A DNA stretch of 63,997 bases, filler included, from Malassezia furfur (taxonomy: Eukaryota): the NCBI GenBank assembly GCA_052055015.1. It is 14 parts of 14 records of this genome, joined end to end, with 100 filler letters (N's around TTAATTAATTAA, not from the genome) between each part and the next. Parts side by side here need not be neighbours in the genome. Positions count along the whole stretch, not along the records: positions 37,877 to 42,459 come from JBQJIT010000664.1; 13 more parts are not named here. One strand, 5' to 3'. Position numbers and translations under genes: made by a program. The notes beneath the pieces were generated by a model, which did not search any database, was not told where the DNA came from, and was given only the letters and a program-made list of their open reading frames with translations. Positions 417 to 61,314 of this stretch are shown in pieces (the stretch's first letter is position 1; each line of letters opens with the position of its first letter).

Positions 417-3054
417 CTACCGCGTCCAGTTGAGCAGCGCCTCGGCGGCCTCGCGCACCTGCGCGTTGGCGTGCGTGTGCGCGAGCAGGAAGAGCTCGTA
501 GGCCGCCTCGCCGCTCGGCAGCACGCGCGCGCCCTCGGGGATCGTCGCGTACGCGTCGTGCTGCCCGTCGCGCACCGAGTCGCGGTTGTCGATCAGCGTC
601 TCGAAGCGCGAGTCGACCACCGCGGTGCGCGCGAGGATCGTGTGCGCGATGCGCAGCGCACGCAGCGCACTGCCCGTCGGCCAGTGCAGCGTCGCGGTGA
701 GCAGGCGCTTGAGGATCGCCGCGCTGCGGTCCAGCGTCATGTACACGCTCTGCCGCGACACCTGCACAAAGCCCACGTCGAGCGCGTGGAAGAGCATCGC
801 GGCCTCGCTCCAGCGGCGCAGCCCGGGCGTCGGGCCGCGCTGCTTGGGCACCTGCGCGGGCGCCGGCAGCGCCGCCTCCTCCTCGAAGCACGTGCTCACA
901 CTCAGCGGCAGCAGCAGCTGGTACAGCGCCACGTGGAACGCCGCGATGTCGATCTCGAGCGCCTCGCCCTGCCCGCGCAGCAGCTCGAGCGCGGTGACGA
1001 TCATGAGCAGCGCCGCGCGCATGCCGACGTGCCGCGGCGCCGCACGCAGGTCGTCCGTCTCGATCGTGTGCGCCGCCTCGACCTCGGCCATCGCGTCGGC
1101 GAGGCGCGTGCGCAGCACCTGCACGAGGTCGTAGAAAAAGTCCAGACTCACATGGTGCGCATACAGCACGATGCCCTCGAGCGCCGCGGCGAGCAGCTGC
1201 TGCGGCACGTCGGGCGTCTTGAGGATGCGGAAGTAGAGCGCAAACACGAGCTTGAGCGTCTCCGATTGCTGGGTAAGTAGCAGAACGTACATGGCGCGTG
1301 CGCTCCTCGACGTCGACGGCCGCCTCCGCCTCGCGCATCTCCTCCTCGATCGCGCGCAGCTCCTTGTTGCGCTTCGCCTGCTTCTTGCTCACGTGCGTGG
1401 CGAGCCCTTTGCGCACCGCCTTGGGGTCCGCACGCCGGCTCTCGGCGGCGCTCGTGTGCCGCGACTTGGCGCGCGGCTTCGCGACGCTCGCCGTGCCCAT
1501 CGGGCCCGTGCGGTGGCCCTTGCCGAGCTCGTCGCGCAGCCGCAGGTGCGCAAGCAGGTCGAGCACATTGGCGTGCACCGCCAGCTTCCGCTCGCGGATC
1601 ATGCGGTACAGCAGCATCACCGCCTCGAGCGCCACCTCGCCGTCGTGGTCGTTCGCCAGCAGCGTCACGAGCGCGCGGTAGCACTCCTCGGACGACGCCG
1701 TCCACGCCTTGCGCGACAGCTGCGCCACCACCACCGCCAGCAGGTTCTTGCGGTAGTTGAAGTGCGTCGCGCGCGTCAGCAGCGTACAGAACGCACGCAG
1801 CGCCACGGGCGCCAGCGGCGTCGCGCTGCGCACCTCGGCCTCGCACAGCTCGAGGTACGCGCGGTACACCTGCACAAGGCCCTGCTCCCACTCGCGCCGC
1901 CGCGCCACCTCCTGGCTCACCTTCTCCTTCTCCTCCTGCTCGGACAGCGGGCGGATGCGGTAGCCGGGCACAATGTCTACAAACACGGCCAGCAGCGAGA
2001 GCAGCGCAAGCTGCCGGATGTACACATGCACCACCACGCGCGGCTTGCCCTGCACGCCCGGCGGCGCATCCGCACGCCGCTCCGCAAACACGAGCAGGCG
2101 CCGCAGCCAGTGCAGGCCCATCTCGGGGTCGCCCACGATCTGCGACGCAAGGTGCGCAATCTGCTCGCGTGCCATCGCAAGCGCCGCGGCGACCGTCGCC
2201 GCGTCCTTGGACTGCGCCTCGGCAATTACCTCGTACGGCGCACGCAGCCCAAACCGCGTCGAGTGCACCGCGGACGACGGCGGGCCGCTCGCGGGCGCAC
2301 GCTGCGCCGCCTCGTCGTCATCGCTCTCGTCGTCGCTCTCGCGGAACACGACGCGGCTCGCCTCGGGCTCCGCGTCGGAGTCGGACGCGTCGAGCTCGGC
2401 AATCGCGCCGTCTTCGGTGCGCACGGGCAGCCGGCGGTGCGCCAGCGCCTCGCGCGCGCGCTCGCGTGCGCGCTCCTCGCGCTTGGAGCGCTTTGCAGCC
2501 TGCTGGAGGTATGCGTCTTCGAGATCGCTCGCGCGGCCCTCGTCGAGGTCTTCGCTGTCGTCCAGCGCGGAGTCGTCCAGCGCGGCGTCGTCCAGCTCGC
2601 TGTCGTCCAGCTCGGCGTCGTCCAGCTCGCTGTCGCCTTCGCTGTCACTCGCGCCCTCCATGTCCGTCGACTCGTCGCCGGACACGCTCGCCTCGCGCTC
2701 GCGGCGGAGCGCATCGAGCGCCTCGCGCTGCTTTCGCTTCTCGGCCTGGAGCCGCGCGCGCTCCTTTCCCTGTGCGCCGGCCTCGCTGACGTCCGGCAGG
2801 CGCGCGCGCGACAGGAACTGCATCGCGTGCACGTCGTCGTCGTCGTCGCTGCCGACCATGGCCTGCGCGTCGTGCGCCAACGCCGCGAGCTCCGCTGGGT
2901 CGTCGTCGTCGTCGGGGTTGGGGCGCACGCGCTTCGCCTGCGGCAGCGCCTTTTTGGGCGCCGCACGTTTCGCAGGCTTGGCGGCGTGTGCTGCGCCGCG
3001 TGCGCCCGCGCCGCGGCCACGCGCGGCGCCGCGACCTGCCCCGCTGCGCGCCAT
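417..3054 (-). CDS. NOC3: Nucleolar complex-associated protein 3, 2 exons (22-nt intron 1269-1290)
   Basis: Acidic/basic N-terminus; SLLAVFVDIVPGYRIRPLSEQE, THFNYRKNLL and QSETLKLVFALYFRILK motifs; the GTACGT..CTTAC.CCAG intron joins the two ORF frames. Confidence 0.88.
2557..2640 (-). repeat. Coding 15-bp tandem repeat (ELDDA/ELDDS/ALDDS) within NOC3
   Basis: Repeated gtcgtccagc core with 15-bp period. Confidence 0.8.
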
Positions 3055-6490: not shown

Positions 6491-7281
6491 ATGTCTGCTT
6501 TCCGTGCTACGCGTACGCTGCTCAAGCGTGTGCCTGAGTCGCCCGAGAAGTACCACTATACCGAGGGACAGACTCCGTTCTGGCGCAAGGTCCGCCACCT
6601 GCTCTCGCTGAACCCGTATGTCACGTCACTCATCGCAGGGAAATCTCGTCCGGTCTGCCCGACCCGGTGCTGGTGCGTTGCATTGCAGCGCACGTTGTCT
6701 AACGCAGAACCGGTATCCCCAACCCGCTTCGCGCCCGGAAAAGCCAGCGACGGTGCCGTCGAAGGGTACGTACATCCACGGCTCCCTTGGACCTTGCTAA
6801 CACGGCGCGCTTCGCTGCGCACGTACTACGATAGCTTCGGGTATGTCTTTCTTCACTTACCCAGACATCGCTGCGAACCTGTACCACAACCGTGACTTCC
6901 GTCGCAAGTACCCCCAGACGGACGTCATTACGCAGCACTACCTCACTGAGCTGCTCCTGGCGAGCCCCAACGAAGACGGCACGAAGAGGTATGTTGCGCA
7001 CGGCGCTCACGCAGCATCCCTGCCGGTGACGAGTCGGGATCCACCGCACTCACGCGCCCGAGCGACCTCAACTCGCCGACGGCCTTCACCGAAGTGCTGA
7101 ACCAGGTGCAGCTTGAGCCGCAGAACAAGTACACGTCCACCAACATGCCGCCGTCGTTCCCGTCGACGAAGCCGCAGCACATCCTCAAGGTGCAGAAGGG
7201 TGCGATCCCCAAGGGCAAGGACCACTACCTGCCTATGTACGTCCCCCGCGCGACTCACCCTTCAGCGACAACTTTGCGTAG
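6491..7281 (+). CDS. Mitochondrial complex I accessory subunit (fungal 21.3a/NUZM type), 7 exons including a 6-nt microexon
   Basis: Introns 6616-6638, 6673-6707, 6766-6834, 6841-6864, 6989-7014 and 7237-7265 give a continuous protein: FWRKVRHLLSLNPEISSGLP...PSKASDIAANLYHNRDFRRKYP. Confidence 0.75.
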
Positions 7282-7337: not shown

Positions 7338-7966
7338 ATGTTCACGTAGGTGGAACGACTGAACGCGTAGCTTGCTGCAGCGGCTAAATGTCGTGACTGC
7401 CTTTATGACCAGCGTCGTCTCGGTGCTGCTTCTGGCAGTCGCCCTGACGAATGTGTCGTTCCGCGCGCCGGCGTGCCAGATCGACGTGAAGCACCTCGAC
7501 CTGTATGTCGCAGCACTCACCCAGCGTATACGGGCGCGCCGCGTCGCACAGCGACCGCCGTACGCAGGACTTCCTCGAGACGTCGCTCGAGCTGGACATG
7601 GACGTCTCGTCGTTGTTCACGTGGGACACCAAGCAGGTGTTTCTGAGCATCGTCGGGTCTTATACCTCGCCGAACCGCGTACGTCGCTTTCTGACGCAGC
7701 CCCAAAACGAGGTCGTGTTCTGGGACAGGATCGTGCGGAGCAAGCGGCAGTCCAAGGTGCATGTGCCCAACCTGCGCAACAAGTATGGGCTGCGCGAGGT
7801 GTCGCGCACCTTTCAAAACATCACGTCGATCGAATTCAGCGTACACTGGAACGTGATGCCGTACGTCGGCATGATGCGGCACGGGCGCACGGATTTCACG
7901 CCGCCCGTCGCGCTGCCCGCGCCCGCCGAGGTGTCGGCAAACAAGGTTCGGCTATTGCATTACTAG
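7338..7966 (+). CDS. SPC3: Signal peptidase complex subunit 3 (SPC22/23), 4 exons
   Basis: MFTLLQRLNV plus TM segment; DVSSLFTWDTKQVFL, NEVVFWDRIV, NKYGL, WNVMPYVG; introns 7346-7370, 7503-7524, 7679-7699. Confidence 0.9.
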
Positions 7967-8012
7967 GATATCACGAGTAGACGAAGTGTACGATGCACAG
8001 AGCACAGCGCGC

Positions 8013-27188: not shown

Positions 27189-27504
27189 ATGATGCTGTCT
27201 ACCCGTATTGCTACGCAGCTCCCTGTGCGCTCCGCCGTGTCCCGCGCGGCGGGCGCCGTGCGCACCTACTCGGCCAGCACGGGCGGCGACGGCAGTGCCG
27301 GCGCCACCGGCCACGACCCCAGCTGGAAGAGCCGCGAGCAGGCGCTCGAGGGCAGCTACATCCTCGAGCAGGAGAAGGCCAAGCTCAAGAAGCTCCACGA
27401 GTCCGTTGAGCAGCAGAAGAAGGTTGTCGAGAACGTACGTGCGCGCGCGCCTCCCCCGCGACTGACCCCAGCTCGAGAGCGGCCAGAAGGCCGAGAAGAA
27501 GTAA
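27189..27504 (+). CDS. INH1: Mitochondrial F1Fo-ATPase inhibitor (IF1/Inh1 family); 37-nt intron 27435-27471
   Basis: Presequence ..VRTYS, GSAGAT, WKSREQALEGSYILEQEKAKLKKL coiled coil. Confidence 0.8.
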
Positions 27505-27568
27505 ACCGCCGCCGGTCTGCTCTCATAGCGTGGGGCGCTGTGCTCTCTCTATGTAGCCTACCAACCGC

Positions 27569-28370
27569 TCACCCCGGCCGCGCACCCGCGCCCGCCTGCG
27601 CCAGCAGCCGGTCCCACACCGCCTCGCTCTCGAGCACGCACCCGCGCGCGAGCAGCCACCGCGCATACGCCCGGATCGCATGCACATCGCTGCGCTCCAC
27701 GGCCTCCTCGCCACTGCGCCCGAGCCGCGCGCTGAGCAGCGTGTCGAGGTTGCCGAGGATGAACAGCTGGCTCTGGGCGCGCGTCAGCGCCACATTCAGC
27801 CGGCGCGTGTCCGCCAAAAAGCCGACGTACCCGCCGTGCGCTGCCGCGTCGCCCGGCACGGCAAGCGCCGCCGCACGCGCAGCGCTCGGCGCCGTGAGCG
27901 CCGCCCGCAGCGCCGGCGCGCCGCGCCACGTGCCGCCGCCCGCCTTGACCGTCGAAAAGAGCATGACCCGCTTCTCGCGGCCCTCGAACCCGTCGACGGT
28001 GTGCACCTCGACGTGCGCGAGCTGCGCCGCACGCGCCGCGTCGGTGTGCGCGAGCGTGTGCAGCGCATACTCGCTCAGCAGCGGCAGCGACGCGAGGCCC
28101 GGCGCGTCGTGCGGCACACCGACGTCGCCCGCACACGCGCCGGCGGCGAGCATGCGCTCGAGCAGGCGCACCTGCGCCTCGTACGGCGTCACGATGCCGA
28201 TCTCGTCGCCGCGCAGCGTGGGGTTGCGCACGAGCAGGTCGCACAGCAGCGCGAGCGCAAGGTCCGCCTGCGGCGCATTGTACGGCGACACGCCGCCGAG
28301 GCCGCCCGCGGCGCTCGCGGCGCTCGGCGCGACGGGCGCGTGCGTCAGCAGCGTGACGGCGTGCGGCGTG
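27569..28370 (-). CDS. SF1 Upf1/DNA2/NAM7-like helicase, C-terminal RecA domain (5' truncated)
   Basis: IGIVTPYEAQV, VHTVDGFEGREK, VGFLADTRRLNVALTRAQ. Confidence 0.85.
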
Positions 28371-33081: not shown

Positions 33082-33181
33082 NNNNNNNNNNNNNNNNNNN
33101 NNNNNNNNNNNNNNNNNNNNNNNNNTTAATTAATTAANNNNNNNNNNNNNNNNNNNNNNNNNNNNNNNNNNNNNNNNNNNN

Positions 33182-40566: not shown

Positions 40567-40910
40567 TTACGCGCCGCCGCTGTTGTGTTAGAGGTTCGCT
40601 TGTCGTGCACATACACAAGCTGGGAAAGAGCGCGAATAGCGCCAGTGTCAGTACGTGTTCATATACGCGTAGTAGGACGTACAATGTTGTTAATGGGGAT
40701 ATGGATCAGTTTCACCAGATAACCAATGAAACCCATCACGAGAAAGCCGACACCGACGGCACGGCACATTTGGATATACTCTGCCATAAGTCACAATCTT
40801 TGCGCAAACGCACCCTTGCGGTCGGGCTTAGTACACCGGTTCAAGAAGTGCACACCCTCATGCACAAACGACACAGGAAGGTCGACAATCTCACGGATCC
40901 GCTCCGACAT
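40567..40910 (-). CDS. SSS1: Sec61 gamma subunit, 4 exons including a 5-nt microexon (40615-40619)
   Basis: Introns 40781-40813, 40620-40682 and 40580-40614 give [49 protein letters not shown]. Confidence 0.93.
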
Positions 40911-40998
40911 GGCGCTACGATATGGAGCGAGCGGCGCGGCGCCTGCGCTGGCGATTTGATCACGTGACGATGCGGCGCGAAGCCTTGTTCTTCCCAGC

Positions 40999-41463
40999 AT
41001 GTGGACGACGAGTGCGATGCGCAGTGCCTTGTTTGCGCAGGCCGTGGCTGCGCCGATACGCGCACCCAAGGTGAACATGCCTCGTCTTGGAATGCGGCTC
41101 CTTAGTACAGAGTCTAGCATTCAGCCCGAGATGCAGGAGCCTCTGCCACGGACGCCTGTCCCTATCCGATACCCTTACTTTGTCAACCGCGTGGGCGTGA
41201 ACCAGTTCAACCTGCCCGTATATGCAGATGTGCGCAATGCCGGATCGCGCACGCTTACTATGATCCGTAAAGTGGATGGTGACGTTTCCGCGCTGTGTCG
41301 CGACCTGTTCGAGGACTTTGGATGGGGCGATCCCTTCGACAAGATGAACCCCGACGCCGACAAGTTGGTTCGCATCACCACCCAGGCCGGCTCCAAAAAG
41401 ATTGTCGTTCGTGGGCACTGGACGCGCGACATCAAGGCATGGCTCGAGGAGCGTGGATTTTAA
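40999..41463 (+). CDS. IMG2: Mitochondrial ribosomal protein mL49 (Img2)
   Basis: YFVNR...NLPVY..IRKVDGD...VRGHWTRDIKAWLEERGF. Confidence 0.85.
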   Translation: MWTTSAMRSALFAQAVAAPIRAPKVNMPRLGMRLLSTESSIQPEMQEPLPRTPVPIRYPYFVNRVGVNQFNLPVYADVRNAGSRTLTMIRKVDGDVSALCRDLFEDFGWGDPFDKMNPDADKLVRITTQAGSKKIVVRGHWTRDIKAWLEERGF

Positions 41464-42559: not shown

Positions 42560-43676
42560 GCCGCGTGCCTCGCCGTGTGCCACCCGCGCGTCGCCGCGTG
42601 CCTCGCCGTGTGCCACCCACGCGTCGCCGTGCGCGTCGCCGTCACCGCTCCCCACCGCCGCCGACGCCATCCTCACGACGCTCGCGCGCGCCGCCGAGCG
42701 CTTCTGCGTGCGCGGCGGCGGCATGGCGTACGCGGGCACGCGCTTTCCCCACATGCTCCGCGACACCGACTGGATGATGCTCGGCATGTCGTCCATCGCG
42801 GCCCTGTTCGCGTTCGGTCGCCCGGACGCATACGTCGACATCCGCGAGCTCGCGGCGTACCGCACGCCGTCGAGCGCGCGCCTCTTTTCCGACGAGCACG
42901 CGGCATGCGTCGCGGCGCGCCTCGATCGCCACGCACCGCCACCGCCAGACTACCGCCCGGACGGGTGTGCGGACGTGGCACTCGCACGCGGCGTCCCGTG
43001 GCCATGCGCATGTGCGCTGCAGCTCGTCGTCCAGCTCATCCACGTCGCGGCGCACCTCCAGCACGAGGCACTCGAGAACCGCGTCGCGCACATCAACGCA
43101 CCGACCGCCTTCCTGGTGATTGTGTGTACAGCGCTGCACATCCTCGCGCTCCGCGCACACACCCACGCCGCAGCACGCACGCTCGTCGACGTCCTCCGCA
43201 CGCATGTGCCGTGGACGACGCTCGAGGCGTTTGCGCGGGTCGACGTCCTCGACGAGGCACCGCTCGCAGCGCCCCACCTCTTGGCGCGCGCCAAGCGCAC
43301 GCTGCCCGAGGACTGGTGCCTGCGCGGCATTGCGTGGAACACATACCACCCCGCGGTGCTCCACGACACGACCCCGGCCGGCGGGCCGGCAGCGGTCGCG
43401 GCGGCGGCGGCGGCACACGCTTCAGCGCCCGAGCCGAACGAGGCATGGGCCGGCGGCGCGACGTTTGCATACGACTCGGAGACACACATGTTTGCCGAGC
43501 TCGGCGCTCGTACACGGTACTATGCGTCGCTCAAGACGCACGCCTACCTGTCGGCATATGTACAAGACCCGGACTTGCAGGCGCTCCTCCGTGTGCGCCA
43601 CGCGCGCTTCCACCTGCTGCACGCGGCGCTGCGCGACGCGCTCGACGCGCTCGATGCGCCCGACGTGCCGGAATAA
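42560..43676 (+). CDS. C-terminal part of a helical protein, possibly Est1/Ebs1/SMG-type DNA/RNA-binding protein
   Basis: LPEDWCLRGIAW resembles the fungal Est1-type LPEDxxxRGxxW motif; 33-bp duplication at the contig start. Confidence 0.5.
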
Positions 43677-56352: not shown

Positions 56353-56452
56353 NNNNNNNNNNNNNNNNNNNNNNNNNNNNNNNNNNNNNNNNNNNNTTAA
56401 TTAATTAANNNNNNNNNNNNNNNNNNNNNNNNNNNNNNNNNNNNNNNNNNNN

Positions 56453-60850: not shown

Positions 60851-61059
60851 GGTCGTCCGTCGCGCAGCGCCCCGCAACCGCTCGATCACGTGGAAGATCG
60901 GGGTGCGCTTACGCCAGCGCTCGACTACGATGGACGCGATCGACCTGACGCGGCTCAAGNNNNNNNNNNNNNNNNNNNNNNNNNNNNNNNNNNNNNNNNN
61001 NNNTTAATTAATTAANNNNNNNNNNNNNNNNNNNNNNNNNNNNNNNNNNNNNNNNNNNN

Positions 61060-61314
61060 GCGCTCGAGGTGCGCGCGGCGCATCGCATCGCGGTACCCCT
61101 CGTCCGCGCCGCCGGCGTGCGCGCCGGCGCCCGGGTCGCGCTGGAAGCGGCGGCGGTGGTAGTCGGACTCGCGCGCCTGGACCTGGCGCGCCTCGACGCG
61201 CTCCGCGAGCGGGTCATACGCGTCGTCCGCAAACTCGTCGAGCAGGTGCTGCGGCGCGGTGTACTGGTCGAGCACGTTGGCGCGCGCGCCGTCGATGTCG
61301 TCGGGCGGCGCCAT
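61060..61314 (-). CDS. SF3B1: U2 snRNP splicing factor SF3B1/Hsh155, N-terminal fragment
   Basis: QYTAPQHLLDEF...ARESDYHRRRFQR...YRDAMRRAHLER matches the N-terminal pattern of fungal SF3B1. Confidence 0.65.

Follow-up and report, generated by a model that had tools for sequence, protein, structure and literature searches.

The minus strand of the Malassezia furfur window (the whole stretch of DNA analysed here, 63,997 nucleotides including filler) carries a four-exon SSS1/Sec61-gamma gene at positions 40910-40567. Its exons of 97, 98, 5 and 13 nt are separated by introns of 33, 63 and 35 nt, and all three introns begin with GT and end with AG (Table 1). Splicing gives a coding sequence of 213 nt and a predicted protein of 70 amino acids, which starts with MSERIRE and ends in a conserved C-terminal tail.

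The SSS1 gene and its five-nucleotide exon

The peptide encoded by exon 2 matches the Pfam family PF00584 (SecE) with an E-value of 3.7e-6 and 27.2 bits, against a curated cut-off of 22.7 bits. The spliced product as a whole has the features of Sec61-gamma, namely a length of about 70 amino acids, a single C-terminal membrane helix and the conserved end. The best explanation of the locus, judged from its sequence, is that it encodes the Sec61-gamma subunit of the ER translocon, whose tail would be built by way of a constitutive 5-nt exon, CTTGT.

To this model we compared three alternative splice forms. Retention of intron 2 gives an unconserved tail, ..NNIVRPTTRI followed by a stop. Skipping of the microexon shifts the reading frame and leads to ..NNIRRRVMAPS.., which is also unconserved, while retention of intron 3 ends in the unconserved ..ILVYVHDK... 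Among the splice forms compared, inclusion of CTTGT is the sole route to the conserved 70-amino-acid end, as the sequence-only reading had claimed. The coordinates that it gave for CTTGT and for the flanking introns of 63 and 35 nt proved exact on re-derivation. Both of these introns are canonical in their donors, branch motifs and acceptors. We conclude that the 5-nt microexon of the SSS1 gene model is almost certainly real.

Table 1. Features of the SSS1 gene and of the second microexon in the window
Feature	Positions	Strand	Description
SSS1 exon 1	40814..40910	-	ATG at 40910; 97 nt; weak Pfam SecE match, 15.6 bits
SSS1 intron 1	40781..40813	-	33 nt; GTGCGT..CAG; CTTAT branch motif 6 nt from end
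SSS1 exon 2	40683..40780	-	98 nt; membrane helix; Pfam PF00584 SecE match
SSS1 intron 2	40620..40682	-	63 nt; GTACGT..CCCAG; no internal AG; about 2-3 times the usual length here
Predicted branch motif TACTGAC, SSS1 intron 2	40647..40653	-	predicted from the motif; predicted branch A at 40648
SSS1 microexon CTTGT	40615..40619	-	5 nt; Leu codon and first two bases of Val codon
SSS1 intron 3	40580..40614	-	35 nt; GTATGT..ACAG; CTCTAAC branch motif 8 nt from end; phase 2 in Val codon
SSS1 last coding exon	40567..40579	-	C GGC GGC GCG TAA; completes Val, then Gly-Gly-Ala-stop
Intron before second microexon	6766..6834	+	69 nt; CTAAC, then 33 nt without AG; predicted branch A 34 nt before terminal G
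Second microexon CTTCGG	6835..6840	+	6 nt; encodes conserved Ala-Ser of ..PSKASDIA..
Intron after second microexon	6841..6864	+	ordinary, 24 nt; CTTAC 5 nt from end

Related loci and public protein models

Metagenome contigs were scanned once with an alignment of exon-2 peptides, which yielded 80 loci. Three of them, L001, L002 and L004, are 88, 84 and 81% identical to SSS1 over exon 2 and share its layout, with an intron directly after NNI, a 5-nt exon, a second intron and a 13-nt last exon. The 5-nt exon reads TTGGT in L001 and CTTGT in L002 and L004, and the three loci have complete 70-amino-acid ORFs that end in LVGGA, LVSSA and LVSGA, respectively. Among public proteins, L002 and L004 are similar to the M. 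globosa and M. arunalokei models, and L001 is similar to a Parajaminaea protein. A comparison of SSS1 exon structure among relatives had been proposed by the sequence-only reading; in these metagenome data the 5-nt exon is kept in all three related loci. No spliced Malassezia-like transcript contig was found among the 80 loci.

A gene diverges from SSS1 in the window (40960-41463, plus strand; ..LPVYADVRNAGSRTLTMIRKVDGDVS..), and candidate intron flanks, inspected by eye, point to a look-alike at the corresponding divergent position in L002 (about 760-920, minus strand) and L004 (about 530-600, minus strand). This suggests conserved synteny of SSS1 and its divergent neighbor in these two loci.

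A different small exon was found in 25 of the 80 loci (18 distinct sequences), where the penultimate SSS1 exon is 15 nt long and encodes (I)NNILV. In these basidiomycete-like loci the downstream intron holds the same position as in the window (phase 2, in the Val codon of ..ILV/GGA), whereas the upstream intron interrupts the Ile codon of PIN, 10 nt to the 5' side of its position in the loci with the 5-nt exon. This offset suggests intron sliding or replacement. The correct tail is present in many public proteins of fungi with the 15-nt-exon type. Because these 25 further loci carry a 15-nt exon, a tiny penultimate exon is, on this sequence comparison, widespread in basidiomycete-like SSS1 genes; the 5-nt form is limited, among the 80 loci, to the Malassezia-like loci and L001. 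In addition, when their flanking sequence was inspected by eye, L008, L011, L012, L013, L022, L025 and similar loci appeared to have a phase-0 intron after ..NNIL, together with divergent tails such as VARN or VGRT before the stop.

Protein searches provided a wider view of the tail. Among the matches listed in a first search, LVGGA forms the end of 69 of 120 homologues, and the count rises to 87 when close variants are included. A second search showed a Parajaminaea model with the correct ILVGGA end and eight named Malassezia models, from M. furfur, M. japonica, M. pachydermatis (two), Malassezia sp. CBS 17886, M. globosa, M. arunalokei and M. nana, and the consensus tail was found in none of these eight. 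The public M. furfur model, P0002, is identical to exon 1, exon 2 and the read-through of intron 2 (72 amino acids, ending ..NNIVRPTTRI). Six of the eight models continue from NNI with a V (V-R, V-V or V-C), as a donor that starts with GT would translate. The exceptions are the M. pachydermatis model P0007, which ends in ..NNITTHKL, and the M. arunalokei model, which ends in ..NNILVYVTCL, that is, NNI joined to the microexon and followed by a reading of intron 3; L004 yields the same NNILVYVTCL string. The read-through tails are mutually unrelated (VRPTTRI, VRTVVLENVY, VRIHCLFLRSLC, VRAHNNTQRE and VCGTHVFWTRY).

It could be argued from P0002, which equals exactly that ORF, that SSS1 has no microexon and that the annotated 72-residue read-through is the protein, all the more as the membrane helix would still be terminated by its short tail. 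We consider this very improbable. Read-through tails lack conservation from one Malassezia species to the next, whereas all four of the four loci conserve the spliced tail, which agrees with the fungal consensus; the consensus signals of both introns beside the microexon, and the run of most Malassezia models from NNI into what looks like a translated donor, also speak against it. Judged by these models, the SSS1 microexon is absent from public Malassezia annotation.

Branch-site geometry in the window and in related loci

To describe ordinary introns, we surveyed this one 64-kb window with a script that combined consensus donors, a CTNAY branch motif and the first AG after it, with a branch-to-AG distance of at most 70 nt. 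The script needed at least 30 open, GC3-rich codons on each side, so introns near gene ends are under-sampled. Of 25 candidate introns that bridge ORFs, 24 are 20-37 nt long and have the predicted branch A 5-8 nt from the terminal G, with a distance of exactly 5 nt in 17. Their donors are mostly GTACGT, but GTGCGT, GTATGT and, once, GTGTGT also occur, and their branch motifs follow CT[GCAT]A[CT]. In the shortest of these introns (20-22 nt), only about 15 nt separate the donor from the branch A.

The 25th candidate (27435-27604) was rejected as a script artefact that spans a 37-nt intron (distance 6) with a short last exon after it. Two distal-branch candidates were also set aside. The one at 33469-33367 on the minus strand, with GTAGGT as its donor and GAG as its acceptor, looks by eye like uninterrupted coding-type sequence, and the one at 42629-42698, with a GTGCGC donor, a GAG acceptor and GC-rich sequence, was judged false. 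Runs of N lie at about 56353-56450, about 60960-61060 and about 33150-33180, and the first two enclose a six-frame stop linker, TTAATTAATTAA. These runs therefore mark joins or masked stretches within the window, and ORFs that appear to cross them are not real.

Introns 1 and 3 of SSS1 lie within the ordinary range, at 6 and 8 nt from branch to end. Intron 2 is an outlier both in length and in branch distance (63 nt and 28 nt, versus 20-37 nt and 5-8 nt in the 24 window introns). TACTGAC, at intron positions 30-36, is the sole [CT]TNA[CT] motif of this intron and places the predicted branch A (40648) 28 nt before the terminal G; the terminal AG is the sole AG. Pyrimidines make up 73% of the branch-to-AG stretch and 87% of its final 15 nt. 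The sequence-only reading had placed TACTGAC at a distance of about 28 nt from the AG, with an AG-free spacer after it, and had stated that typical introns here keep the branch a few nucleotides from the AG. These descriptions agree exactly with our measurements, with the branch predicted from its motif. Its further description of the spacer as pyrimidine-rich holds for SSS1 and fails as a general rule, as the spacer before a second microexon is only 56% pyrimidine.

This second microexon emerged when the window was scanned for distal-branch introns followed directly by a very short exon and then by an ordinary intron. The pattern matched SSS1 and one other place, in a gene for a complex I 21-kDa/B14.5a-like subunit (6491-7281, plus strand), whose seven-exon model gives a product of 194 amino acids. 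The product aligns without gaps to M. sympodialis MSYG_0951, a 194-residue orthologue, compared as protein only, that includes the Ala-Ser encoded here by the 6-nt exon; MSYG_0951 comes from an annotation described as curated with RNA-seq and proteomics (PMC5389616). The Ala-Ser pair is present in eight of nine aligned homologues that cover the site. The exception is a public M. equina model, which is without the two residues encoded by CTTCGG; the model P0128 starts after the site.

The complex I gene also has a 34-nt exon (6639-6672) after an ordinary 23-nt intron, and a regular-expression scan for short exons between two ordinary introns returned only this exon. The next gene encodes a signal peptidase complex subunit (PF04573) at about 7400-8000 on the plus strand, with introns at 7503-7524 and 7679-7699. 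The M. equina and M. yamatoensis models P0124 and P0126 (370 and 367 amino acids) fuse the two genes, which look separate in the window.

The distal position recurs in the related SSS1 loci. In the window gene, the nearest strict branch motif is separated from the AG by 28 nt in the upstream intron and by 8 nt in the downstream intron; the corresponding distances are 42 and 20 nt in L001, 65 and 8 nt in L002, and 49 and 8 nt in L004, where a weaker CTCAT lies at 38 nt. The upstream intron of L002 also contains a weak CTTTCAC 3 nt from the AG, which is probably too close for use. Other introns in or beside SSS1 in L002 and L004 have distances of 8-13 nt, with 20 nt for a doubtful 34-nt candidate in L002. 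The organism of L001 has generally longer branch-to-AG distances, 20-22 nt by the strict motif, so that its 42 nt represent an approximately twofold excess. In contrast to the distal motifs that precede the 5-nt exon, those upstream of the 15-nt exon are proximal, at 6-24 nt (median 12) in the 18 distinct loci, similar to the 7-14 nt of their downstream introns.

Taken together, the distal layout is found before both window microexons and in all four loci with the 5-nt SSS1 exon, versus none of the 24 ordinary introns. The spacer is AG-free in all five distal-branch introns (the four SSS1 loci and the complex I gene), and its pyrimidine content in the five is 73, 56, 68, 70 and 60%. At the level of sequence motifs, the combination of distal branch and AG-free spacer is a true outlier that recurs and is linked to exons of 5-6 nt.

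We also considered other uses for the long introns. An intronic non-coding RNA was rejected, as no Rfam family matched at E-values up to 1 in or around either long intron. A conserved fold that bridges branch and AG was likewise rejected: as a group, the four upstream SSS1 introns fold no better than shuffled sequences (z-scores of -0.98, +1.98, -1.47 and +1.65). In the M. furfur SSS1 spacer a 5-bp hairpin is predicted, and the effective distance would be shorter if it formed.

Spacing across the microexon and comparison with known systems

With an ordinary layout, the branch of SSS1 intron 2 would fall about 11 nt upstream of the intron-3 5' splice site. The predicted distal branch, with its A 28 nt from the AG, would instead lie 33-34 nt from the next GT. 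The AG-free spacer may thereby give room to complexes on the intron-2 branch and on the intron-3 5' splice site, should these need to coexist; alternatively, it may keep the 5'-exon-binding surface of the spliceosome on intron 3 clear. When exon length is added to the branch-to-AG distance, the M. furfur microexons come to 33 nt (SSS1) and 40 nt (complex I), the related 5-nt loci to 47-70 nt and the 15-nt-exon loci to 21-39 nt. We lean, by a little more than an even chance, towards the view that the spacer of SSS1 intron 2 serves steric spacing between the branch site and the next 5' splice site. This is the best-supported explanation of the layout, and the support, which is correlative, is good. 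We infer that TACTGAC is the branch in use and that spacing is the selected property.

The sequence-only reading had attributed the layout to avoidance of a clash between U2 and the next U1 across the 5-nt exon. The structure it described and its recurrence bear this out, and every comparison fits; the causal part of the claim is indirect and depends on predicted branch points. Against a simple clash, ordinary introns tolerate about 15 nt between 5' splice site and branch A. Because about 15 nt suffices within introns of 20-22 nt, spacers of 28-65 nt exceed what a simple clash would demand, and if the two introns were removed sequentially, simultaneous occupancy would not be required. As related members of a single lineage, the four SSS1 loci do not count as separate origins of the trait, which may have appeared just once and been retained since. 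Independent replication of the distal layout comes from the complex I gene alone.

That single lineage would also suit a neutral history, in which the microexon is real and the distal branch is a leftover of a longer, less streamlined intron 2, perhaps gained or slid recently, with no role of its geometry in inclusion. The upstream SSS1 introns are not alignable among the four loci and range from 63 to 117 nt, and the upstream intron sits 10 nt downstream of its position in the 15-nt-exon loci, which suggests a separate history. We nevertheless consider a neutral leftover unlikely, since the geometry persists in four diverged loci, of which the Malassezia-like ones otherwise have distances of 8-13 nt and the M. 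furfur window 5-8 nt, an unrelated gene in the window has a matching layout before its 6-nt exon, and the layout is absent from the 24 ordinary introns.

The distal branch and spacer could instead serve timing, with a slow intron 2 that faces a normal-sized exon once intron 3 is out, or a tract-dependent, U2AF-type recognition of the 3' splice site, as a 5-nt exon offers no exonic contacts. Upstream introns of plant microexons are described as preferentially detained, with the downstream intron spliced first (PMC8831610). Pyrimidine content points the same way in four of the five spacers (60-73%, versus 39-61% in the upstream part of the same intron), as does the final 15 nt in M. furfur and L002, which is 87% pyrimidine in both. 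The complex I spacer, however, falls below the upstream part of its own intron (56% versus 67%), so the tract is not general, and removal of intron 3 first would still need a free region upstream of its 5' splice site, which is spacing again. We therefore regard timing or tract recognition as a quite improbable account of the layout, and retain steric spacing as the preferred one.

A broader form of the steric-spacing explanation is possible, though we would put its chances below even. Malassezia-type fungi may have a hard minimum of about 30 nt from the branch point to the next 5' splice site, met for exons of a few bases by a second mode of 3' splice-site recognition (distal branch and AG-free spacer) in place of 'branch + 5 nt + AG'. 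Were this the case, every intron of roughly 60 nt and longer in Malassezia-type genomes would flag a hidden microexon, a rule that would recover a missed class of exons genome-wide, and the minimum itself would be a clean, genetically tractable measure of the cross-exon footprint of the spliceosome.

Several consequences follow. The proposed model corrects that of an essential translocon subunit, for which none of the eight named public Malassezia models had the conserved tail. One small genome offers a sharp contrast between 5-8 nt in the introns examined and 28 and 34 nt before the microexons, and the limit between branch site and next 5' splice site becomes directly testable in a yeast by editing of the spacer. 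In the annotation of fungi with ultra-short introns, a missed microexon may be suspected wherever an intron is unusually long, has a distal branch motif and contains no AG in its tail.

Constitutive mini-exons are known from plants. Simpson and colleagues are said to have reported, in RNA in 2000 and 2002, that inclusion of a 9-nt constitutive mini-exon of potato invertase depends on two elements far upstream within the intron before it, a strong branch point and a U-rich tract, and their mutational work reportedly pointed to a minimum spacing between branch and 5' splice site. That case differs from SSS1 in that the gene is from a plant, the exon is 9 nt long and in frame, and the U-rich tract is reportedly required. 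Our literature search found nothing that links Sec61 gamma with a microexon, and the titles and abstracts of the Malassezia literature yielded nothing on an SSS1 microexon or a branch-distance rule.

A single-nucleotide exon in Fusarium CYP621A, with transcript support from SRA, has been described by Nelson and Syed (2026, PMC12940212). Like the SSS1 exon, this fungal micro-exon falls within a conserved motif, was overlooked in annotation and came to light through comparative alignment, and it was betrayed by an 'intron' of more than twice the median length (PMC12940212). The words 'branch' and 'steric' are absent from that paper.

For vertebrate neural microexons, a 2026 preprint proposes that extended branch spacing gives physical space and relieves steric constraints, with a modest shift in the median distance, 45 versus 34 nt (PMC12871342). 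Those exons are described as alternative, tissue-regulated and linked to SRRM4/UGC motifs, whereas the M. furfur exons look constitutive, and we do not class the SSS1 exon with the SRRM4-regulated type. The spacing principle has thus already been described for vertebrate microexons, and SSS1 is, in our assessment, a new and unusually clean fungal case of it: among introns of 20-37 nt, the predicted distance shifts from 5-8 to 28-34 nt, compared with the modest vertebrate shift (PMC12871342).
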